A stretch of DNA of 63,557 bases, the filler included, from Reclinomonas americana ATCC 50394 (Eukaryota), in assembly GCA_048213135.1 (NCBI GenBank). It is 5 parts of 2 records of this genome, joined end to end, with 100 filler letters (N's around TTAATTAATTAA, not from the genome) between each part and the next. Parts side by side here need not be neighbours in the genome. Positions count along the whole stretch, not along the records: positions 1 to 18,468 come from PS015100.1; 4 more parts are not named here. One strand, 5' to 3'. How positions within the stretch are numbered: the first letter of the stretch is position 1; every line of letters begins with the position of its first letter. The notes under the pieces are model-generated. The model had not been told where the DNA came from, made no database searches, and was given only the letters and a program-made list of their open reading frames with translations. The position numbers were made by a program, and so were the translations under genes. This document shows positions 6,523 to 38,904 of the stretch, one piece after another.

Positions 6523-6670
6523 ATGCGTCGGAGCGGAGGTCGTGCGCCTATCTTCGATGAGGTCAAGCAGCAGTACGATGAGGCTAAGCGGCACTACGAC
6601 AGTGGTGACTATGCCACCGCCGCACCCCCCCTCGCTCGCTGCATGCGCGACTTTGAGGACTTGCGCGCGC
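6523..6670 (+). pseudogene. Truncated 5' relic of the TPR-kinase-RING gene family
   Basis: MRRSGGRAPIFDEVKQQYDEAKRHYDSGDYATAAPPLARCMRDFEDLR aligns with the N-termini at 6900 and 37483; homology then stops and the frame closes at 6747. Confidence 0.75.
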
Positions 6671-6899
6671 GGTTCGATGCATGCATGGATCACGACCTCG
6701 ACCTCGATCGTCGAGCTTGTCGATCTGTCGCGCATGTGGGATCATAAGCACTTCTCCATGTTTGTACTTCGCTTGGCGATGGGTGATCTGCGCAACGTGT
6801 GTCGATATTACAGCCTCTTCTTGAGTGAACTTCGAACTGTCTGCCAATACATGTCAAAAAAGTCCTTTTGTGGTTATCGTCCGGCGTGTGTTTGTCGTC

Positions 6900-9800
6900 A
6901 TGCAACGACGCGAAGGCCCGACGCCGAGTTTCGATGAGATAAGGCAGCAGTATGATGAAGCCAGACGGCTCTGCGACAGCGGTGATCATGCCACTGCCGC
7001 ACCCATTCTCAGTTCCTGCCTAAGAGATTTTGAGGACTTGCGCGGCCCTGACGACGACGCGACTCTTGTGTGCGCCTTCAAGTATGCGGTCGCGCTCCGC
7101 GAGTCGGGAGACACGCAGAGCGCATTGTCGCTGTTCGACGATGTGCTGGAGAGGAGGAAGCGTCTGTTGGGCGCGACTCACAAGAGAACGTTGCAGACAG
7201 CTTTCAACAAGGGTCGCACACTTGTGGCACTCAAGTGGTACGACGAGGCCATTGCATTGCTGCGCGACACGGCGGCGAAGCAGGAACGCTACGTGGATGA
7301 AGGTGATCAGGAGGTGTTGGATACGTTACACTGTCTGGCTTTCGCGCTCGTCGGTAACAGGGAGTACGAGGAGTCAGTTCGAGTCTCGCGTGACGTTGTG
7401 CGCCGGAGACGTGAAGTGTTGGGTGCGGATCACCCTGCAACACTGACGAGCATGCACAATATGGCATGCGCACTGGCCGATGCAGGTGGCTTGACCAATC
7501 TGGAGGAGGCTTTGCAGATCTACGAGGAAGTCTTGCCGCTTCGTCGTCGCGTGCTGGGGCCGAACCACGTGCACACCCAGCACACTGCCGACAACCTTTC
7601 CGAAACCCAAGCAGAGCTGGCCGTTGCGCGGCGACGTCGTGACGCTGCACGCATATTCCGTGCGTATCCTTGCATCATGCTTCGTGTTTATGCGCTTGTA
7701 CATGTTGACGGTTTTGCGTGATGCGCAGCGCCTTCGAGGTCTTCAGCCTCTGCGTACATCGCACCACCACATACACCGCGGCCAGTGCACCGCTCGCCAC
7801 CAGTGTACGACGCACCGCCAGCGTTCGGCTCTCCTCCGGCAGCAGCAGCATACGTCCCTCCACCAGTGCTACCTCAAGCCCCAGCTGCAGCATTCGCCGC
7901 TCCTGCAGCGTACGGCTATCCTCAAATGTACCCACCACCAGTGTACGACGCACCTCCACCGTACCAAGCACCCCCAGTGTTCTCCCCGGCTCCACGAATG
8001 GCTTACCCGCCGGTGAGGAATGACAACATTATTGATGCTATGTTGACGCTCATCGAGATTGAGTGCAACAGCCACCGCAAGTGAACTCGGGCCGCGAGCA
8101 GGAGCTGGAGGCGACTATTGCACAACTGCAACGCGACCTGACGGAGCAGCGAGCGACAGCACAGCAGCAAGATGCCACGATTGCGCAGGTGCTGGATGAG
8201 GCGGACGTGCAGCAGGCGGCTGTCCGCGAGCGAACAGCTCAAGTGGATGCATTGCAACAGCAAGTGCAGCAACATGAAGCCACCATTGCGCAGCTGAGGC
8301 GGGAGGTAGAGGAGCAGCGGCAGCAGCAGCAGACGGCTGTCCGCGAGCGAAATGCCCAAGCGGATGTGTTGCAGCAGCGCGTACAACAACAAGATGCCAC
8401 CATTGGGCGATTGCGGCGCGAGGTGGAGATGCAGCGGTTGCATGTGCAGCCACAGCGAGAAGCCGCGGTGCAGCGCTTGCGCGAGGAATGTGCGGCTCTT
8501 CGAGTCTCCTTGGAGCGAATGGACGAGCAGCGGCAGCAAGAGTACGACCGCGCACAGCGACTGGCCGCTGATTTGGCCGCCGCGCAGCACGAGCTCAACC
8601 ATCGTGGTGAGTGCGAGTGAGTGTGCGGCAAAGATTGCTTGTGCTCATGTGCAGCTTTGCAGTTCCACTGACGGTCTTTTCGTGGAGGCAAATCGGCGCC
8701 ATGACAAATGGCTTTGCTCGTCGTCTTGGCGTGGGTGGACAGGGAAGCGTGTTTTCTGGCGCGTGGAAGGAGCAGCAGGTGGCCGTCAAAGTGTTCGACA
8801 GCGATGCGCCGTGGTGCATCGAGTCGTTCTCCAATGAGGTGAGAGTATTCGTGTGGGGAGACCTGGCCATGGTGATCATCGCATTTTGTTTACCGTTATT
8901 TGCTGGGTGCAGTTGGAGAAACTAAAGAATGTGATGGTGCCTGGCGTGGTTCGCATTATTGGGTTTGCCGAGTCTGACCGTGGTGAAAAGTGCATTGTGC
9001 TGGAGGCCATGAGGTTGGTGGATATTGCGTATTCCTGCTGGTTGCATGCAATTCTTCTGGCACGTTGTTGCTGATGCACTGTCTTTCTCTTGATCATTCT
9101 CAAGCGAGCACAACCTCGAGCACCGGTTGTTGGAGTATCAAGCACTCGGATTGTCCGTCATGGCCATCGAGGAACGGATGACATGCCTGCTTCGCTGTTC
9201 GGAGATCGTGGCGGCATTGCACAGGTGAGGCAGCGGATGAAGTGGGAAGTCGGGTGCTTGTGGTCGTTTCTCATCATCTCTTGTTGTACAGGATGGTTTG
9301 TGTTACTGTCGTGCTACTTGATGACGTCGTTTCTCACTCCCCTTCCCTCTCACTGTCACTGCTTTCTGTTCTCGCCTTCACCCAGAATGGTGAGTCTCCG
9401 TGAACTCGGTTGTGAGTGATTTGACCTCGCTTGTTAACCATGATTCGCAGTCATTCACCGCGACCTGAAGCCCGCCAACATCCTGTTTGACGAGCGTGGC
9501 CAGGCGTGCATCTCGGACCTGGGAATCGCGCACTGGTTCCGCACCGCCGGGGTGAGTGTGCACTCTCTCTTCCCTCGCCTTCCCACCGATAATATACTCA
9601 TGAGTGCACGTGTGGCGACAAGCAGACACACCTGTCGGTGCAGTTTGCAGGCGACCACGACTATGCCGATCCGCAGGCACTGCGTGGCATTCTGCGCCCG
9701 ACTGCCGACGTGTACATGTACTGCCTCGGACTCATTCTGCTGCAACTATTCTCCAGTCAGCCGATTGCCGAGGTACACAAGTGGATCGAGGGAATGGTGG

Positions 9801-10282
9801 AGGACGACGACGCGGCGAGACTCGATGAGGCCGCTGTGCTGCTGGCCGACGCCGCGGTCGGCCGGGAATGGCCCACTTCCGTCTGTCGCCGTCTTGTGCG
9901 GTTGGCCATGCGGTGAGTAGTAAGCATCAGCCCCGTTGCATATTTGCACTGCGTAGGTTTCCCTCAGAATTCGAGAAACAGATGTGTCGACCATCGACCT
10001 AATCGCCGACCGAGTGCCGACGAGCTGGTGGCCGAGATGCGCGATCTCACTGCGTTGTCGTGCCGTCGCGCCTGCGTTCTCTGTTATGATGTGCGCGAAA
10101 CTCGACTGCGTCCGTGCGGACACGAGGTGGTGTGCCGCAACTGTGCGCAGCAAGTGGTCGAGCGACGTGGCAAATGTCCTCTCTGTCGCACCTCGGTCAC
10201 TCGCTTCGACTCGGGAGATGAGTACGGCTATCACACACTTGTGCTGGCGCCGCCGTCAGCTGCGGCCGCCGCGAGCCCGTGA
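6900..10282 (+). CDS. TPR (kinesin-light-chain-like) - Pro-rich - coiled coil - IRAK/Pelle/RLCK-like kinase - RING protein, paralog A
   Basis: TPRs of about 42 aa (LGxxHPxTL). In-frame GT-AG introns link them to a Pro/Tyr-rich exon, a Gln-rich coiled coil and a kinase (FSWRQI..TNGF..LGVGGQGSV, VAVK, HRDLKPAN, DLG, DVY), then a RING CVLC..PCGH..CRNC..CPLC; stop at 10282. Confidence 0.8.
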
Positions 10283-10355
10283 TGACTGTTGGCAAGTGCA
10301 AACATGTAATTACAGATTTCATTTGGCAAGAATCTCTCTCTCTATCTACTCTCGT

Positions 10356-11075
10356 CTACTGCGTGCAGCTGTCAAACGGAGACTGACTGCAGGTGGCACC
10401 ACTGTAGCTGCCGCAGCAGTTGCCGTTGCCGAGGTGAGTGCTGGTGCCGGGGCACGAGGCGGTGCCAGCGGCCACGGCGGGGTAGTTGTTGCAGGCGTAG
10501 TGGCACTGGCAAGTCAGATCGACCGTGCAGTAACCGTGGTTGTTGCATGCGCCGGGGGCATCAGTGCACACCGGCACCGGCGGCCACGCAGCCGGGAACG
10601 GCGAGTTCTCGCAGTGGCTGCCCGACCAGCTGCCGCAGCAGTTGCCTGTGAGGGAGAGAGAGAGGGAGGAGAGTTGAGTCATTGCGGAAATGGAGCAGAG
10701 GAGCAGACAAGTGACAAACCGTTGCCAGCATTGTCGGTGCCGGGCGGGCACACGGCAGTGCCGAGGGCCACCTGCACGTAGTTGACGCAGTTGTAGTAGC
10801 AGGCGCAGGTGAGGTCGGGCTTGCAGAAGCCGTTGCTGTTGCAGGCACCCGGCTCGTTGGTGCACACGGCGACTGGCGGCCACACGGCGGGGAAGGGAGA
10901 GACGTCGCAGTTGGCGCCCGAGTAGAAGCCGCAGCAGTTGCCGTTGGTGAGGTCGCTGGTGTTGGGTGGGCACGAGGCGGTGCCGAGGCGCACAGCGTCG
11001 TAGTTCTTGCAGGTGTAGGCGCACGAATCGGCCAGTGCGACGGCCACACAGACGGCCAGCACGGCGACAAAGAGG
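10356..11075 (-). CDS. Secreted cysteine-rich 74-aa repeat protein with EGF-like elements, copy A; start codon lies in the gap
   Basis: Signal-peptide-like LFVAVLAVCVAVALA, one intron, near-identical to 33007-33744. Confidence 0.85.
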   Translation of the reverse strand, partial: PLCRRAGRLCGRRTGRFVRLHLQELRRCAPRHRLVPTQHQRPHQRQLLRLLLGRQLRRLSLPRRVAASRRVHQRAGCLQQQRLLQARPHLRLLLQLRQLRAGGPRHCRVPARHRQCWQRFVTCLLLCSISAMTQLSSLSLSLTGNCCGSWSGSHCENSPFPAAWPPVPVCTDAPGACNNHGYCTVDLTCQCHYACNNYPAVAAGTASCPGTSTHLGNGNCCGSYSGATCSQSPFDSCTQ

Positions 11076-11487
11076 NNNNNNNNNNNNNNNNNNNNNNNNN
11101 NNNNTTATGGCCTTTTCCCGAATTCGATGTGCCGTGTACGATCGCAGAAAACGCTATGCGTCTATGCAAGTGCGTCAAATCCACTGGTCAACCACGCTTA
11201 TGCGGTGAAGATCGCAGTTCTCGACTTGTTCGGAGCTCCGAGAGCGAACACACACACACAAGGAACCTGCTGCTGCCTCAAGATTGGTGTCTGTGTTGAT
11301 GTTTTGGATACGGCTGAACTTGGTCATCAAGACAGCTGTTGCTTGTTTGTTGGTGAATGAATTGTTGTTGTTGTTGCACTCCGTGGTGACACAGACAATC
11401 ACTTCCGTCAACGCTCGTGTGCCCGTGTGTTTGGGCGCTGTGCTCACAGACTCTTGACGAAAACAATCACGATTGATATTTCTTGGT

Positions 11488-12718: not shown

Positions 12719-15052
12719 TGGACTTTCTCGGCTGCGATGAACCCCCCGTGGGCTCTCCCACAGCAGCAGCAGCCGCATCACGTGCGAGCAAGTCATCATC
12801 GACTGCAATGGTGTGTGTGTGTGTGTGTGTGTGTTTGATCGATCACCACCATGCCCACTCTTCTCTCGCACGCACAGCACGTGGACTCCACTGGTGCGCG
12901 TCGTGCCACTGCTGCACAGAAGAAGCGCGCGCGCGGGAGCACACGACACGACGATGACGATGACGAAGAAGATGATGACTTTGATGATGATGATGATGAT
13001 GCAATGCACGAGGACGACGACGACGATGACAGTGGCGAGTACGATGATGATGCACCAGTGGTCAAGCGATCGCGACGTGCATCAGCAGCAGCAAAGAAGA
13101 AGAGTGGGAAGAGTGGGAAACGAGGAGGCGGAAAACGCGCAAGTGCCTCTGCCTCTGTGGCGGCGGCCACGGTGAGTGCGACCAGTGAGGTGGCATTGGC
13201 GTATCCCGAGGCCGAGGGAGACGCGGGACCGGTGAGTGAAGAAGCGTCTTCTTGTGTAGTTGTGTGTGGTGACTGACAGCTGTGCGCAGGAGCGGTGAGC
13301 ACAAGCCCGGTGACGTTGTTGTTGGTGTTGAATAGACAGATGGTGACATGTAGTGTGCGCAGTGTCGATTTGGATGTGTATGAGGCGCGTCTGGCAGTGG
13401 GAAGATCGCGATCACTCAAGAAGGTTTTCTTCCTCTCGCGAGCGCGCGTCCGCTGCTGCTGCTGCTGCTGCCGACGCGCGTGTGTTTCTGCGTAGGTGAT
13501 TGAGCATGCGGCGAAGAAGCATCCGGGCAGCTGGCGATCGCAGTTTGCGTTGGGATTGTTGCATATTCGACTGGGTGATGCGGAACAGGTGCGTGCGTGT
13601 ATTTGCTGCGTTGTCGAGCATGGGAACTGAGTGAGACACGCAGGCGCAAGCGGCGTTTACGCGGGCCAAGGCGGCGTTTGCCAGTATGGTTGCGAAAGTG
13701 GTGGAGGTGCAGCGGCGGCAGGTACGCTCTCCCCCAGCCCCCGATTGAATGCCTGGCGCTGTCGCTCCTCACTCCGTGGTGCAGCATGTGCTGAGTGCGC
13801 TGCCGTCGGAGTTTGTGGCGCGCCTTCCGCCGCGGTTGCAGGCGCTCGAGGCCATGCTTGACAATCACCTGGCGCAGGCACAGGCCATGCACGGTGCCAG
13901 TGGAACTGTGTTGCAGAGTGTGCAGCAGCAGCTCACGGCCGCCACGAGAGTTTCGTGCAACAATCAATCTATGGATCCCCTTTCCTCTCTTACCGGCGTG
14001 TTGCCTCCTCCCGCCCGCAGAAAGACAATGGCCAGCCGGACATTTGGAATAATCTTGGCCTGTTGCATCTGAATGCCTCCAAGTGGGAGGGCGCCAAGAC
14101 CATCCTCACTCCGATCCACAAAATCTTCCCCGAATACTACGATGCGGTCACCAACTTGGCCCTGAGCTACTTTGGTGCCATGGACGTTGCGTCTTGTGAA
14201 GCGCTCTCCAACCCATCGACGACATGCGTCGCTGACAGCCGAAGAAATTGTGTGCCGTCGCAGTTCGAGACGGCCACTAAGTTGTACCAGGATGTGCTTC
14301 TCAGCGATCGCCAGCATCTGGAGGCACTGAGCAACTATGGCGTACTATTTTTGCGACAGCGTCTGTTACGTGGAGAGAGAGAGAGAGAAAGCGAGCGTGC
14401 GCGCGAGTGGGAGGTTCACTTACCGGTCGCTGCACAGGTTTCCGTACGCTGTCTCCATCTTTGAGGATGCACTCGAAGTCAATCCGCGCTCCGCCTACGT
14501 GTGGAACAATCTGGGCGTGTCCTACAGGTTTCTCAATCGTCTGCAAGATGCGCACGACTCGTTCGCCAAGGTGCGTTGTTATTTCGCAGTTCGTACTGGT
14601 GACAGCTGCTCATCTCTTGCGGCAGGCGGCCAAGCTAGAGACCACGGACGAAGTGCGACACATTATTCTCGTGAATCAGGCCTCGGCACTCGTCGGACTC
14701 AGCAGGTTCGACGAGGCCGAGGTCATTTACGAGCAAATTCTGGAGGCCACTGAACGTCGCTCGGCGCATGCGCTCATCGGCCTCGCGAGGGTGCGCTGCG
14801 TGTTTCGTTGCCGCTCAATACTTTGTATTGGCTAACTGTATCGAACAGTTGCGTGCACGGCGACAAGAGGAGCTGCTGCAGAGCGACGGCAAGACAGACG
14901 CCACTGACGCGCTTGCCGCACAAGGTGTGGTGTTGTCTCTCTTTCTCTCTCTCTCTCGGTGTTTCCTTACTCTTGCTTGTGCGAATACAGCGCTGGCAAC
15001 CTACATGGAGGCGTCTCGGCTCAACGACAAGGACTTTTATCCGCTGTTCCAG
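12719..15052 (+). CDS. TPR protein with acidic/basic low-complexity N-terminus, 5' and middle exons (copy on contig 12238-15077)
   Basis: PDIWNNLGLLHL, YDAVTNLALSY, EALSNYG, AYVWNNLGVSY; in-frame splicing includes a 5-nt exon at 13290-13294. Confidence 0.75.
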
Positions 15053-15097
15053 GTGACACATACGTCCCTATGCTCTGNNNNNNNNNNNNNNNNNNNN

Positions 15098-15168
<71 letters not shown>

Positions 15169-15171
15169 CGC

Positions 15172-16820
15172 AACAGACGCTGTCGCAAAAATAGTACGCC
15201 ATAGTTGCTCAGTGCCTCCAGATGCTGGCGGTCGCTGAGAAGCACATCCTGGTACAACTTGGTGGCCGTTTCGAACTGCGACGGCACACAATTTCTTCGG
15301 CTGTCAGCGACGCATGCAGTCGATGGGTTGGAGAGCGCTTCACAAGACGCAACGTCCATGGCACCAAAGTAGCTCAGGGCCAAGTTGGTGACCGCATCGT
15401 AGTATTCGGGGAAGATTTTGTGGATCGGAGTGAGGATGGTCTTGGCGCCCTCCCACTTGGAGGCATTCAGATGCAACAGGCCAAGATTATTCCAAATGTC
15501 CGGCTGGCCATTGTCTTTCTGCGGGCGGGAGGAGGCAACACACCGGTAAGAGAGGAAAGGGGATCCATAGATTGATTGTTGCACGAAACTCTCGTGGCGG
15601 CCGTGAGCTGCTGCTGCACACTCTGCAACACAGTTCCACTGGCACCGTGCATGGCCTGCGCCTGCGCCAGGTGATTGTCAAGCATGGCCTCGAGCGCCTG
15701 CAACCGCGGCGGAAGGCGCGCCACAAACTCCGACGGCAGCGCACTCAGCACATGCTGCACCACGAAGTGAGGAGCGACAGCGCCAGGCATTCAATCGGGG
15801 GCTGGGGGAGAGCGTACCTGCCGCCGCTGCACCTCCACCACTTTCGCAACCATGCTGGCAAACGCCGCCTTGGCCCGCGTAAACGCCGCTTGCGCCTGCG
15901 TGTCTCACTCAGTTCCCATGCTCGACAACGCAGCAAATACACGCACGCACCTGTTCCGCATCACCCAGTCGAATATGCAACAATCCCAACGCAAACTGCG
16001 ATCGCCAGCTGCCCGGATGCTTCTTCGCCGCATGCTCAATCACCTACGCAGAAACACACGCACGTCGGCAGCAGCAGCGGACGCGGAGACGCGCGCGAGA
16101 GGAACAAAACCTTCTTGAGCGATCGCGATCTTCCCACTGCCAGACGCGCCTCATACACATCCAAATCGACACTGCGCACACTACATGTCACCATCCTGTC
16201 TCTTCAACAACAACATCACCAGGCTTGTGCTCACCGCTCCTGCGCACAGCTGTCAGTCACCACACAACAACTACACAAGAAGACGCTTCTTCACTCACCG
16301 GTCCCGCGTCTCCCTCGGCCTCGGGATACGCCAATGCCACCTCACTGGCCGCACTCACCGTGGCCGCCGCCGAGGCAGAGGCACTTGCGCGCTTTCCGCC
16401 TCCTCGTTTCCCACTCTTCCCACTCTTCTTCTTTGCTGCTGCTGATGCACGTCGCGATCGCTTGACCACTGGTGCATCATCATCGTACTCGCCACTGTCA
16501 TCATCATCGTCGTCGTCGTCCTCGTGCATTGCATCATCGTCATCATCATCAAAGTCATCATCTTCTTCGTCATCGTCATCGTCGTGTCGTGTGCTCCCGC
16601 GTGCGCGCTTCTTCTGTGCAGCAGCAGTGGCACGACGCGCACCAGTGGAGTCCACGTGCTGTGCGTGCGAGAGAAGAGTGGGCATGGTGGTGATCGATCA
16701 AACACACACACACACACACACACCATTGCAGTCGATGATGACTTGCTCGCACGTGATGCGGATGCGGCGGCTGCTGTGGGAGAGCCCACGGGGGGTTCAT
16801 CGCAGCCGAGGAAATCCATG
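15172..16820 (-). CDS. Second, near-identical copy (likely other haplotype) of the TPR protein 5' exons
   Basis: Reverse-complement match to 12719-14370, differing by SNPs and repeat lengths. Confidence 0.75.
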
Positions 16821-26782: not shown

Positions 26783-27389
26783 TCACTCGGCCGACGCGGG
26801 AGCCTTGCGCAGACGGGCCATCTCCTCGGCCATTCTGTCGCGCTCCAGCATCAGCTGCTCCACTTGCGTGCGCATCTTCGAGTTCATCTCGCGCAGAGTC
26901 TCAATCTCCGACTTCTGTGGAGCGACGGAGGGAAGAGGAGGCGCAGTGTTCAGCTGGAATCATCATCACGACAGAGGAAACGAGAGTTACCGCACCTCCG
27001 CAGCAGGGGCCGCCGACGACGCCGCCGCCTTGGCCAACATCTCCTCGTCGGCGTGGCCGCGCTCCATCATCCACTCGGGCCTGAGGAACTTGGTCATGTA
27101 GTTGCGCAGACCGTCGGGCAAAATCACCACCACGCGCGCGTCAGCCGGCAGCTGTCACACAAGACTCAGAAAAATGCCTCCTCCCACTTGCACGAGAACA
27201 ACAAAACAACATACCGTGCGTGCCACCTTCAGCGCAGCCACCATGGCACTGCCCGAGGAGCCGCCGCACAGCAGACCCTCCTCGCGGATCAGTCGGCGCG
27301 CCATCAAAAATGACTCCTTGTCGGTGCTCTTGTACCACTCGTCCACCAGACCGCGCTCCAGCACCTTCGGGATGAAATCGTATCCCACA
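26783..27389 (-). CDS. CBS: Cystathionine beta-synthase, 3' exons; 5' part missing
   Basis: [59 protein letters not shown]. Confidence 0.9.
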
Positions 27390-28015
27390 CTGCCCGTGGC
27401 ACACACACGAATGTCGTCAGCGGGCACGAAGAGAAAGGAGAGGGAGTGCAGGAGACGAAGGGGGGAAAGAGAGAGAGAGAGGAAGGAAAAAGGGAGAAAT
27501 GGTTTGGAAAGATTGAATAAAAATACTGAAAGTCTCGGGGGACAAGAGAGACGGAAAGCCAGGAGAGAGAGAAGAAGATGAAAGAGAAAAAACGAGAAGA
27601 AGAAGAAGAAGAATACGAAGAAGAAAAAGAAGAAAGAGAAAGAGAGAAGGGGAGAAGAAAGAGATCGACTGGAAGGTTGGGCGAACACATCGCAAGACTC
27701 GGCGAGGGAAGATCAAAGAAAAGCGGAAAGAAATATTCTGGAAAGTCTGGGAGAAATACATGAACAAGACTTGGGGTGTACACACAGAGAGAAGGACATC
27801 AGGAGAAAGGAGGAAAGAGACGGGGAAAGCGAGGAAAGAAAGGGAGAGAGAGAAAGATAGAAGGACGAGTGCAAGGGAGAGAAATAGTATCGAAAGGTTG
27901 AGGGAAACAGATGAAAAAAACTCCAACAGCGGCGGAAACCCCAAGAGAGAGGAAAATCAGGAGAAGAGAGAGAGAGAGAAAAATCAGGAGAAGAGAGAGA
28001 GAGAGAAAAATCAGT

Positions 28016-33006: not shown

Positions 33007-33744
33007 ATGATCGCCTCCAAGACCCTCTTTGTCGCCATGCTGGCCGTCTGTGTGGCCGTCGCACTGGCCGATTCGTGCGCCTACACTTGCAAGAACTACG
33101 ACGCCGTGCGTCTCGGCACCGCCTCGTGCCCACCCAACACCAGCGACCTCACCAACGGCAACTGCTGTGGCTTCTACTCGGGCGCCAACTGCGACGTCTC
33201 CCCCTTCCCCGCCGTGTGGCCGCCAGTCGCCGTGTGCACCAACGAGCCGGGTGCCTGCAACAGCAACGGCTTCTGCAAGCCCGACCTCACCTGCGCCTGC
33301 TACTACAACTGCGTCAACTACGTGCAGGTGGCCCTCGGCACTGCTGTGTGCCCGCCCGGCACCAACGATGCTGGCAACGGTTTGTCACTTGTCTGCTCTC
33401 TCTCTCTCTCTCTCTCATCCCCGCAATGACTCAACTCTCCTCTTTCCCTCACAGGCAACTGCTGCGGCAGCTGGTCGGGCAGCCACTGCGAGAACTCGCC
33501 GTTCCCGGCCGTGTGGCCGCCGGTGCCGGTGTGCACTGATGCCCCCGGCGCTTGCAACAACCACGGTTACTGCACGGCCGATCTGACTTGCCAGTGCCAC
33601 TACGCCTGCAACAACTACCCCGCCGTGGCCGCTGGCACCGCCTCGTGCCCCGGCACCAGCTCTCACCTCGGCAACGGCAACTGCTGCGGCAGCTACAGTG
33701 GTGCCACTTGCAGCCAGTCTCCGTTTGACAGCTGCACGAGGTAG
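33007..33744 (+). CDS. Secreted cysteine-rich 74-aa repeat protein, copy B (complete, 2 exons)
   Basis: Signal peptide MIASKTLFVAMLAVCVAVALA; about 2.6 repeats with 10 Cys each (GNCCG.YSG..C..SPFPAVWPP..C..CN..G.C..DLTC.C); strongly C-ending codons. Confidence 0.9.
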
Positions 33745-33809: not shown

Positions 33810-36800
33810 TCATACTCGAACGGCTGCCGCGGCAGGTGGTTCTGGCACAAACGCGTGGAAGCCGAACTCGTCTCCTGATTCAAAACGGGCGACCGAGGTG
33901 CGACAGAGAGGACACTCGCCGCGACGGTCGACAACTTGCTGCGCACAATTGCGACACACCACCTCGTGTCCGCATGGATGCAGTCGAGTGTTGCGCACAC
34001 TGTAACAGAGAACACAGGCACGACGGCACGACAATGCAGTCAGATCGCGCAACTCGGCCACCATGTCGTCGGCACTCGGGCGGCGATTGGGTCGATAGTC
34101 GACACAGCTGCAGCACCCCGAACCATGAGGGAAATGAATGACAATGTGCAGGGAGCAGCTCACTCACCGCATGGCCAAGCGCACAAGACGCCGACTGACA
34201 GATGTCGGCAACCCCCGACCGACCGTGACATCGGCTAGTTGCACAGCGGCCTCATCGAGTCTCGCCACGTCGTCGTCCTCCACCATTCCCTCAATCCACT
34301 TGTGCACTCTTGCAATTGGCTGACCGGAGAACAGTTGCAGCAGAATGAGTCCGAGGCAGTACACGTCGGTGCTCGGGCGCAGAATGCCACGCAGTGCCTG
34401 TGGATCAGCATAGTCGTGGTCGCCGGCAAACTGCACCGACAGGTGTGTCTGCTTGTCACCACACGTGCACTCATGAGTATATTATCGGTGGGAAGGCGAG
34501 GAAGGGAGAGAGCATACTCACCCCGGCGGTGCGGAACCAGTGCGCGATTCCGAGGTCCGAGATGCACGCCTGGCCACGCTCGTCAAACAGGATGTTGGCG
34601 GGCTTCAAGTCGCGATGAATGACTGCGAATCATGGTGAATAGGCGAGGTCACATCAACTACAAACGAGCTCACGAAGTCTCACCATTCTGGGTGAAGGCG
34701 AGAACAGAAAGCAGTGACAGTGAGAAGGAAGGAGAGTGAGAAACGACGTCATCAAGTAGCACGACAGCGACACAAACCATCCTGTACAACAAGAAACGAT
34801 GAGAAACGACCAAACGCACCTGCTTCTCATTGCAGCTGTCTCACCTATGCAACGCCGCCACGATCTCCGAACATCGAAGCAAACACGTCATCCGTTCCTN
34901 NNNNNNNNNNNNNNNNNNNTGAGTGTGCGGCAAAGATTGCTTGTGCGCTCTCGCTCATGTGCAGCTTTGCAGTTCCGCTCACGGCCTTCACCTGGGAGCA
35001 AGTCGGCGCCATTACAAATGGCTTTGCTCGTCGTCTTGGCGTGGGTGGACAGGGAAGCGTGTTTTCTGGCACGTGGAAAGAACAAGGGGTGGCTGTGAAG
35101 GTGTTCAACAGCGATGCGCCGTGGTGCATAGAGTCGTTCTCCAATGAGGTGAGCGCTGCGTGTGTCGAGAACAGGTGATCATCGCATTGTGTTGATAATT
35201 GTTTGTGCGGCACAGTTGGAGAAACTGAAGAGTGTGACGGTGCCTGGTGTGGTGCGCATGATTGGTTTTGCCGAGTCTGACCGTGGAGAAAAGTGCATTG
35301 TGCTGGCGGCCATGAGGTTTGTGGAGATCGCGTATTCTTGATTACGTGCAATTCTGGTCATTCTCCTGACCATTCTCAAGCGAGCACAACCTCGAGCACC
35401 GGTTGTTGGAGTATCAAGCACTCGGATTGCCCGTCATGGCCATCGNNNNNNNNNNNNNNNNNNNNNNNNNNNNNNNNNNNNNNNNNNNNNNNNNNNNNNN
35501 NNNNNNNNNNNNNNNNNNNNNNNNNNNNNNNNNNNNNNNNNNNNNNNNNNNNNNNNNNNNNNNNNNNNNNNNNNNNNNNNNNNNNCTCGCACTCACCACG
35601 ATGGTTGAGCTCGTGCTGCGCGGCGGCCAAATCAGCGGCCAGTCGTTGTGCGCGGTCGTATTCTTGCTGCCGCTGCTCGTCCATGCGCTCCAAGGAGACT
35701 CGAAGAGCCGCACATTCCTCGCGCAAGCGCTGCACCGCGGCCTCTCGCTGCGGCTGCACATGCGAGAGCGCAGTGCGCAGCTGGTGTATTGTGGTCTGGT
35801 TGGCGGCGAGTGACTGACGCAGGTTGACCACAGTGGTCTCCATCTCACGAGCACGGTTGTACCAGCCCGTAGCTCCTGTTTCTTGAAGCTGTGCGTGCGC
35901 TCGTTGCTCCTCCAGCTCCAGCTGCAGGCTTCGACCAGTCGCTTGTGCTGCGCCCACTTGAGCGGTCAACTGCACAACCTGTCGCCGCTGCTCCTCCGCC
36001 TCGCGCCGCAGCTGCGCAATGGTGGCCTCGTGTTGCTGCACTAGCTGCTGCGCGGCATTCATCTGCGTGGTCCGCTCGCGAACTGCGGCTTGCTGCGCCT
36101 CCAGCTCGCGACGCAATTGGGCGATGGTGGCTTCGTGTCGTTGAGCCTGCTCTTGCGACGCATCCACTTGGGCAGTCCGCTCGCGGATAATTGCTTGCTG
36201 ATCGTTCTTCTCGCGTTGCAGTTGCGAAATAGTGGCATCGCGACGCTGCACTCGCTGCTGCGCTGCATCCACTTGAGCGGCCAGCTCGCGGACCGCCGCC
36301 TGTTGCTCTTCCACCTCACGCCGCAGTTGCGCGATGGTTCCTTCGTGTTGCTGTGTCGCCGCTCGATGTTGCGCCAGGTCACGCTGCAGCTGGGCGATGG
36401 TGGCCTGCGACTGAGACTGCTCGCTGCGAAGCGTGGTCAACTCTCGCGTCTGTTGCCGCACAAGGCGCTGCTGCTCTACCAGATCGCGTTGCAGTTGTGC
36501 GTTTGCTGCCTCCAGCTGCTGCTCGCGGACCGAGTTCACCGGTGGCGGCTGGTTGGTGCACGTGAGGTAAGTGTCGGGCAAGCATCGGAACTTGTCAGTT
36601 TTCTCTCACCAGAGAACGCACTGGCGGGGGAGTGGACGCAGAAGCAGAGGAAGCTGCAGTCGCGGATGAACAACTAAAGTGTGGAGGATGAATCATAAGT
36701 GTGCGTCACTGACGTACCAGATGGGGAGGTCGTCGACGTAGTCTTGCGGAGTGCCGCCAGCTTTGCACGGGTGTTGGTAATGTGGTCAGCCGTGGTTTTG

Positions 36801-37795: not shown

Positions 37796-38904
37796 TCAGC
37801 TGGTGTATCCATACGCCCGCAGCTGCATCTTGAGTTTGTCGACCTTGACGTCGTTCTCGTGGCGCCAGATTCTCCTCAGATCGCCCATCAGCACCGACAG
37901 CGTCTCACTTCCCGGCGGCACATTGGCCTCGGGTCGCGGCGGGAAAAACGCCCACACCCTCGTCCATCCATTCTGCTGCGAGAAACCATCCAGCGGCGGC
38001 AACACGCGCGTCGCATGATTGGCAAACGCCGACACATACTCGAACTCGCGGCCGTCGAACTCGATGCTGCCCGACGCACCAATGCGCACATCCGCAATCT
38101 TCTCCCTCAACCGGAAGCGCAACTCCTGGCCCACCCACAGCAGCCCGGCCTCGACCAGCTCCGCAATACGCACATTGCTCTGCGTCGTGCCCGCCACAGC
38201 CGTCGTACGCCGACGAGCAGGCCGCGCAGCCGATTCACCACCCGCCTCGCCCTCACCCGCCTCATCATCCTCGCCAGCCACATCGCCAGTCGACGTTCGG
38301 CGCCGCTTCAATTGCGGTGCACCGCCGCCAACACGCGCACCACCTGCATCGTCGCAGTTCAGTGCACGGTAATGATGAACTGTGCACACACGTGTCAGTG
38401 ACCTTTCTTGTTCTTGCCAGGCTCGTACTCGTCGTCCGAGTGGCCCTCGTGATCCGAGTTTCCCATCTCTGTCGATCGTGCTCTCTTGTTGACGCCAGCT
38501 GCCGTGGTGACTGCCGCGGTTGTGGCGACCGCCGGCACAGCTCGATTCACCGCAACCGCACCTCCTCCCGCACTCGTCCGACTGCCCGGCTTGCGCTGCT
38601 GCATCGCCGACCGTGCCGCCTGCTGCTTCTGGCGCACATGACTCGGCAGATACAATGTCGGCGCCGCATCCACCGCCATCTCTGTCACCGCGACTGCCGG
38701 CACCACCACTGCTGCAGTCGTTGCCGCAACCGCCGAAGCCGCCGCCGCCGCTGCTGCTGCTGCTGCAGTGGCCGCCTGCTGCGAGCGGTGCTCCATGACC
38801 TGCTGAATGGCCTCACCGACACTGTCGGCCATCGGCCGCGTAATGTTGACGTCGGCAAAGAGAACGTGATGCACGGCGCCTTCCATGTCGCGACGGAGCG
38901 CGCT
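37796..38904 (-). CDS. 3' exons of Shg1/BOD1-RAMA protein, containing the RAMA domain
   Basis: IAELVEAGLLWVGQELRF..GSIEFDGREFEYVSAFA..NGWTRV fits the RAMA consensus; linked in frame to the upstream exon by a phase-1 intron at about 38345-38402. Confidence 0.7.

Follow-up and report, generated by a model that had tools for sequence, protein, structure and literature searches.

How a reading frame is carried across an interval that no single intron can bridge is the question raised by a predicted protein kinase gene of Reclinomonas americana ATCC 50394 (assembly GCA_048213135.1). The gene, designated gene A, lies on the plus strand at about 6900-10282 of a 63,557-nucleotide (nt) stretch of DNA, which was analyzed as a whole and is called the window here. 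The window is a gapped draft of eukaryotic sequence with a guanine-cytosine (GC) content of ∼57% and 28 runs of N. Gene A was modelled on the basis of its open frames, its matches to Pfam and its splice signals. In this model, 11 exons would give a protein of ∼890 residues in which TPR repeats are followed by a proline-rich linker, a coiled coil, a protein kinase domain and, at the C-terminus, a RING finger. The gene has a second copy, paralog B, which is located on the minus strand from ∼37.5 to 33.8 kb of the window. The exons that cover the kinase domain and the RING finger are numbered K1 to K6, and the interval in question (9225-9450) separates K3 from K4, directly in front of the catalytic loop. 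A sequence-only reading of the locus had proposed two 4-nt microexons, GATG and AATG, within this interval. Based on the splice paths, the comparison of both copies and the fit to other kinases, it is probably these two exons that restore the reading frame.

K4 could be recognized as kinase sequence on its own. It matched the Pfam family Pkinase (PF00069) at profile positions 119-148 with an E-value of 1.9e-08 and 34.4 bits (cut-off 31.7), and 499 distinct solved kinase sequences in the PDB at E ≤ 0.01, of which MKK7 was the best (E 4.7e-07). It carries a catalytic loop of the HRDLKxxN type, and its DFG-type motif reads DLG, not DFG. K3 ends with GCA TTG CAC AG at 9224, followed by GTGAGG, and K4 starts at 9451 with TCATTCAC, preceded by ttcgcAG. 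No single GT-AG, GC-AG or AT-AG intron can restore the frame between K3 and K4. The frame of K4 opens only at 9444, with a sole acceptor AG whose last base is 9450, and where K3 ends, GT, GC or AT follows none of the phase-1 positions.

The coding sequence downstream of the interval was compared between A and B. For the 225 codons that run from IHRD up to the stop codon, the ratio of nonsynonymous to synonymous substitution rates (dN/dS) was 0.186 (Fisher p = 2.5e-14), with 54.7 synonymous differences (Sd) at 170.2 synonymous sites (S) and 37.3 nonsynonymous differences (Nd) at 504.8 nonsynonymous sites (N). For K6, the ratio of the corresponding proportions (pN/pS) was 0.27 in the frame set by HRD, whereas the two remaining frames gave 2.41 and 1.65. 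Over the kinase-RING region (361 aligned codons) dS was 0.37, dN was 0.067 and dN/dS was 0.18. As purifying selection is seen only in the frame set by HRD, the exons past the interval are translated in that frame in both lineages. Judged from the sequences of the two copies, the reading frame must be restored across 9225-9450.

It was considered whether both copies might be untranslated or decaying pseudogenes, in which a single intron of 226 nt breaks the frame and the resemblance to microexons is coincidental. The gapped draft state of the assembly would allow this, and no annotated protein for the gene was present in the protein databases searched with K5 and K6. The dN/dS of 0.19 downstream of the interval and the pattern of K6, which appears in the HRD frame only, argue against it. 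In addition, all eight exon borders and the open reading frames (ORFs) are intact in both A and B, and the indels in the coding sequence are in frame only (with 6 nt affected in K5 and 3 nt in the C-terminal K6 tail). Since the chance rate of the tandem layout is moreover ∼0.1%, there is very little likelihood that the two copies are pseudogenes.

To find the paths by which K3 and K4 could be joined, every GT-AG path was enumerated that uses no more than three introns, each at least 40 nt long. This resulted in 87 paths that are in frame and free of stop codons, 12 of which keep K3 up to 9224. Three of these 12 insert exactly 8 nt. In the first of the three, the 8 nt are divided over two exons with the contexts tgtacAG/GATG/GTTTGT (9292-9295) and cacccAG/AATG/GTGAGT (9386-9389), and GATGAATG is placed at the junction of K3 and K4 (the 4+4 path). 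Both 4-nt exons are flanked by a YAG acceptor (Y, pyrimidine) and a GTNNG donor. When K3, GATG, AATG and K4 are joined, the product reads AALH-RMN-VIHRDLKPAN, in which the AG of K3, the 8 inserted nt and the TC of K4 encode Arg-Met-Asn-Val, the three-residue turn and the first hydrophobic residue before IHRD. The bases and coordinates of the microexons and the LH-RMN-VIHRD join given in the sequence-only reading all match the sequence. Its claim that skipping of one or both exons shifts the frame was also confirmed, as the translation of each such product stops within 7-16 codons past the His.

In the other two paths, one 8-nt microexon restores the frame, either GATGGTTT (9292-9299, donor GTGTTA), which is followed by an intron of 151 nt, or AATGGTGA (9386-9393, donor GTCTCC), which is preceded by an intron of 161 nt. 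Both paths are canonical GT-AG solutions and give the usual spacing, as LH-RMV-FIHRD or LH-RMV-IIHRD, and single 8-nt microexons are commoner in the literature than tandem microexons of 4 nt. However, G at position +5 of the donor, which is present in 17 of 17 donors of A and B (10/10 in A and all seven that are readable in B; 14 of the 17 lie outside the microexons), is missing from both of the 8-nt exon donors. The donor at 9394, which would be used by exon 9386-9393, is GA in paralog B, and this path is unavailable there. The path with exon 9292-9299 must bypass a strong pyrimidine tract with CAG at 9385 and a perfect GTGAGT at 9390. Introns of 151 or 161 nt would also be about twice the length of the longest other intron (91 nt). 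The introns of the 4+4 path are 67, 90 and 61 nt long, and the lengths of the other introns are 56-91 nt in A (seven introns) and 60-90 nt in B. When only the signals shared by the other introns of the gene were allowed (YAG acceptor, G at donor position +5 and introns of at least 45 nt), the real interval offered three paths, and the 4+4 path was the only one that restores the frame. GTTTGT, the donor of microexon 1, also serves the ordinary K2 intron of B.

The products of the different paths were compared with seven kinases, which had been fetched with a 40-residue query centred on K4 at E ≤ 10 and were used for spacing and fit only. The eight catalytic loops of these kinases all consist of a His, three residues, two hydrophobic residues and HRD or HGD, with G, Q or H as the third spacer residue. 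The spliced product of gene A matched all seven kinases locally, with 33.5-109.6 bits. The phmmer scoring covered seven of the 12 paths that keep K3. The 4+4 product was on top against each of the seven kinases and reached a summed score of 393.8 bits. The two 8-nt alternatives, both of them below 4+4 against 7/7 kinases, reached 379.0 and 367.0 bits, and the four other paths 338.6-351.5 bits. Taking the splice signals, the intron lengths and these scores together, the use of a single 8-nt exon is considered unlikely.

Restoration of the frame by non-canonical splice sites, RNA editing or a programmed ribosomal frameshift is the least probable of the explanations considered and is hardly to be expected. 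Nothing was found that speaks for it, and a wholly canonical solution is available. A +1 shift after splicing of a single intron would leave the spacing from LH to HRD three residues short. The fold of 9205-9470 was no better than that of shuffled sequence (z = 0.10), and nothing reached the gathering threshold when Rfam was searched over the whole window.

The frequency at which similar signals occur by chance was determined within the window. On both strands together, the bare pattern AG-N4-GT was found 367 times (∼0.7 per 226 nt) and the pattern YAG-N4-GTNNG 44 times (∼0.086 per 226 nt). The complete layout, in which a donor, two microexons and an acceptor are each separated by 45-110 nt, was found at the two paralogous loci and nowhere else in the window. 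When 5000 segments of 226 nt were drawn at random from the window, 1422 contained a frame-restoring path with the signals of the gene, 245 contained a path that inserts 8 nt and six contained a 4+4 path.

Both microexons had been reported to be kept in paralog B, and they were indeed found there, on the minus strand and with identical flanking dinucleotides. As the structure of the interval is common to both copies, it predates their divergence. Within 9225-9450, 28 of the 226 positions differ between A and B, and none of the differences is at one of the 23 critical positions, i.e. the splice dinucleotides, G at +5 and the bases of the microexons (P = 0.04 if changes are uniform). The identity between A and B is 80.6, 95.6 and 82.0% for the three introns of the interval, compared with 66, 58 and 48% for the three outer introns and 81-97% for the exons. 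The identity of the 90-nt intron between the microexons (9296-9385) is above that of any other intron and of all but one exon. In K5, paralog B (34360-34372) has 6 nt fewer than A (9727-9732), so that Tyr-Met is lost in frame from the DVY..CLG stretch.

Several points weigh against restoration of the frame by the 4-nt pair. The tract 9258-9700 is ∼93-97% identical between A and B and includes K4 (97%), the ordinary intron 9552-9625 (93.2%) and the start of K5. Because this whole local tract, including an ordinary intron, is so similar, the retention of the microexons in the paralog is weak evidence for them, and gene conversion would fit the high-identity tract as well as constraint on the microexons does. 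Under loose GT/AG rules, the two single 8-nt exons give a spacing equal to that of the 4+4 path. Only 17 donors, taken from two related genes, underlie the strict signal rules, and three of these donors belong to the microexons (two in A and one in B). The seven fetched kinases are distant, few, mostly of bacterial type and were picked by similarity to K4, and their fit is supportive only. Finally, no homologue from another species that could be used in a conservation test was obtained from the protein searches with K5 and K6 or from the metagenome contigs searched with K5. K5 had no relative in a word-based search of longer proteins and no match at E ≤ 0.001 among 1.84 billion representative proteins, and K6, which contains the end of the kinase domain and the RING finger, had no match at E ≤ 0.1 among the longer proteins. 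The sole candidate for K5, a metagenome locus with 65% GC (L001), matched 24 residues around one back-translated pattern and was rejected as a relative.

The two copies are mosaic in their similarity, with ∼72% identity in the TPR exon, 97% in 8440-8617, 82% in 8618-9169 and 88% in 9170-10999. This suggests that gene conversion has taken place repeatedly between the inverted copies, which are ∼25 kb apart in window coordinates. Within paralog B, a gap of 20 N (34900-34919) is located inside K3, and the parts of 65 and 55 nt on its two sides abut exactly to give an intact K3 of 120 nt. Judged from these sequence matches, the flipped segment 34920-35445 (in the window region 34900-35585) reflects an error of scaffolding rather than a broken gene. 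Approximately 250 nt upstream of exon 1 of A, a segment that resembles a first exon and starts with ATG was observed at 6523-6667. It shares 85.8% identity with the start of B (37483-37336) but only 76% with exon 1 of A (6922-7044). The segment may have been left over from a tandem duplication, or may serve as an alternative first exon.

If the two 4-nt exons are used as proposed, they would be included constitutively in the messenger RNA (mRNA) between K3 and K4, from which they are split by the introns described above. In a genome with short introns, each intron would be recognized across itself (intron definition), and the introns of 56-91 nt fit with intron-defined splicing of gene A. The three introns would then be removed one after another, and by the time the second side of a 4-nt piece is spliced, the first splice would already have joined it to a long exon. 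Stepwise removal is likely because a 4-nt exon cannot hold factors on both sides at once. According to PMC4674806, such stepwise intron removal was proposed for a 1-nt exon of Arabidopsis and was reported for a 9-nt exon of potato invertase. The arrangement would be older than the duplication that gave rise to A and B, and would have been retained since a working kinase-RING protein is still encoded by A as well as by B.

Alternatively, the microexons could be real, but be used as regulated cassettes. The 4-nt pair would then act as a frameshift-coupled splicing switch, in which the near-invariant 90-nt intron carries regulatory elements and skipping turns the kinase off by producing either a truncated scaffold protein or an mRNA that is a target for decay. 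Skipping of either or both exons indeed leads to an early stop. A microexon switch with a similar logic is described for Xlr2 of Trichoderma (PMC11121469), and a conserved flanking intron, comparable to the intron between the microexons with its unusual conservation of 95.6%, is reported as a feature of the 4-bp (base pair) exon of human MPC1 (PMC9929638). However, the MPC1 exon is constitutive according to the same report, and a 4-nt microexon of rice was validated by reverse-transcription polymerase chain reaction (RT-PCR; PMC8831610). The microexons have splice signals that equal or surpass those of the constitutive introns next to them, and the conserved tract spans an ordinary exon and intron as well. 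Moreover, the skipped product would end within the kinase domain past the N-lobe and not at a domain border. The sequence-only reading had suggested that skipping could act as an on/off switch that yields a kinase-less TPR-coiled-coil product. This part of its interpretation found no support, and the early stop would fall inside the kinase domain after the N-lobe and no clean product would result, whereas its structural part is the reading best supported by selection, splice signals and protein fit. Regulated skipping is therefore seen as a rather improbable function of the pair. An intron-borne small nucleolar RNA as the cause of the conserved middle intron is unsupported, as there was no Rfam match.

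The origin of the pair was also considered. The introns 9225-9291 and 9296-9385 share a local similarity of 29 columns that ends with GTCGTTTCTCA (z = 3.3, p ∼ 0.015, with 28 intron pairs tested). An origin of the two microexons by tandem duplication was rejected, as this similarity is out of register with the microexons and is not significant after multiple testing. Beyond paralog B, no further copies of the interval 9225-9450 were found in the window.

Ultra-short microexons are known from several organisms. In ten plant species, 2,398 microexons were reported, about half of which are not multiples of three and most of which were unannotated (PMC8831610). These plant microexons of 1-15 nt lie between canonical introns and inside conserved protein motifs, and they routinely escape annotation, which leads to frameshifted gene models (PMC8831610; PMC11096116). 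Besides the 4-nt microexon of rice, adjacent microexons of 5 and 12 nt in a Peptidase M1 gene of plants were reported with support from RT-PCR and RNA sequencing (RNA-seq; PMC8831610; PMC11096116). The predicted pair in gene A resembles the microexons described for plants (Yu et al., 2022, PMC8831610) and for the Zygnema genomes (PMC11096116) in that it is ultra-short, flanked by canonical introns, critical for the frame and placed in a conserved motif. It differs from them in that both neighbours have 4 nt, adding up to 8 nt, and in that it is located in a genome that is not plant-like, between introns of 56-91 nt. The 1-nt exon of Arabidopsis APC11 (Guo and Liu, 2015, PMC4674806) is likewise too small for exon definition and is reported to be constitutive, and its authors propose that it is spliced by intron definition. 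It is one experimentally verified exon, whereas two in tandem are predicted here. The exon of human MPC1 (Koh et al., 2023, PMC9929638) shares the length of 4 bp that is not a multiple of three and is constitutively included, but it is described as a single exon in a genome with long introns and exon definition. Consecutive microexons are reported for human RPS24 (PMC12207440, PMC11162997). These have 3, 18 and 22 bp, are alternatively spliced and are located at the C-terminal end of the gene, outside a catalytic domain. In Xlr2 of Trichoderma virens (PMC11121469), inclusion or skipping of a microexon decides on the production of a domain, which makes it an analogue of the switch discussed above; its regulation is documented there by expression data, whereas a switch in gene A is a conjecture.

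No tandem, consecutive or adjacent microexon pair as short as 4+4 was found in the open-access literature searched, and the pair is probably an extreme case among the known ultra-short microexons. As 1-nt, 4-nt and adjacent microexons are already documented, no new mechanism has to be assumed. If the two exons are used as proposed, they would be a clean example of the reach of intron-defined splicing, with two exons of four bases in the structural core of an enzyme that were kept through a duplication. They would also be a trap for annotation: in software that disregards such exons, whether for gene finding or for RNA-seq alignment, both kinase genes would appear as frameshifted or truncated. 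In plants, annotation errors at microexons are reported to be pervasive (PMC8831610).

The coordinates of the features of gene A and of the corresponding parts of paralog B are listed in Table 1. ORF 6825-7721, which contains exon 1, matched the Pfam families TPR_12 (E 1.1e-31, 109.3 bits, cut-off 30.1) and TPR_10 (E 8.5e-29, 99.1 bits, cut-off 27.5), both above the curated cut-off. Exon 3 contains internal repeats of 112 nt with 79% identity. K1 alone gave a weak match to Pkinase (E 0.23) and PK_Tyr_Ser-Thr at profile positions 4-41. K2, K3 and K5 each alone had no match in Pfam, and K3 also had none in the PDB. For K6, a match to zf-C3HC4_3 (PF13920) was obtained with an E-value of 2.8e-10 and 40.3 bits (cut-off 27).

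Table 1. Positions in the window of the predicted exons and selected introns of gene A and of their counterparts in paralog B.
Feature	Coordinates	Strand	Remarks
Exon 1	6900-7659	+	TPR_12/TPR_10 repeats; predicted start ATG at 6900; donor GTGCGT at 7660
Intron exon 1/exon 2	7660-7728	+	69 nt; brings the frames of exons 1 and 2 together
Exon 2	7729-8012	+	Proline-rich linker; within ORF 7722-8084
Exon 3	8072-8606	+	Glutamine-rich coiled-coil repeats; within ORF 8063-8620; coiled-coil-type Pfam matches weak
Exon K1	8663-8838	+	Kinase; glycine loop GVGGQGSV, VAVK lysine
Exon K2	8913-9013	+	Kinase; donor GTTGGT in A, GTTTGT in B
Exon K3	9105-9224	+	Kinase; ends with AALH + AG (phase 2); read-through gives an immediate TGA (CAC AGG TGA)
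Intron K3/microexon 1	9225-9291	+	GTGAGG...ACAG
Microexon 1, GATG	9292-9295	+	Predicted from splice-site, path-enumeration and signal analyses
Intron between microexons	9296-9385	+	GTTTGT...CCAG; long pyrimidine tract
Microexon 2, AATG	9386-9389	+	Predicted; consensus donor GTGAGT directly 3'
Intron microexon 2/K4	9390-9450	+	GTGAGT...GCAG
Exon K4	9451-9551	+	Kinase; VIHRDLKPAN catalytic loop, DLG
Exon K5	9626-9912	+	Activation segment and C-lobe, divergent; alone without Pfam or database match
Exon K6	9982-10282	+	Kinase subdomain XI and C-terminal RING finger; stop codon 10280-10282
Paralog B, K1, K2 and first 65 nt of K3	34920-35445	+	Segment flipped between two N runs; A 8618-9169 matches in plus, the neighbours in minus
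Paralog B, microexon 1, GATG	34778-34781	-	Matches A
Paralog B, microexon 2, AATG	34684-34687	-	Matches A; donor GTGAGA
Paralog B, exon K4	34522-34622	-	98 of 101 nt identical to A

The window was also scanned with Pfam, for which 62 long ORFs (∼180 amino acids or more) were taken from 206 ORFs of at least 110 amino acids. Only the TPR protein, a RAMA domain and a PALP fragment were identified among these 62 ORFs. The RAMA domain (Restriction Enzyme Adenine Methylase Associated; E 1.2e-09) is encoded by the ORF 37799-38812 on the minus strand, which adjoins paralog B. The match to the family PALP of enzymes dependent on pyridoxal phosphate (PLP) was found at 27158-27712 on the minus strand with an E-value of 1.9e-06, below the curated cut-off, and is probably one exon of a split gene. 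Directly downstream of each kinase copy, at 10356-11153 (minus strand) and 33075-33657, tandem cysteine-rich units of ∼70 residues could be identified, with the recurring motif C-x-C...NY...GTA-C-P...GNCCG-YSGA-C. The scan covered these repeats on the B side only, where the long ORFs that overlap them (33075-33657) had no Pfam match. A large inverted duplication is formed by 13400-14500 and 15000-16500, in which the ORFs 13862-14464 (plus strand) and 15021-15677 (minus strand) are nearly identical, and the region between its two arms contains (GA)n/(CT)n microsatellites and an N gap.

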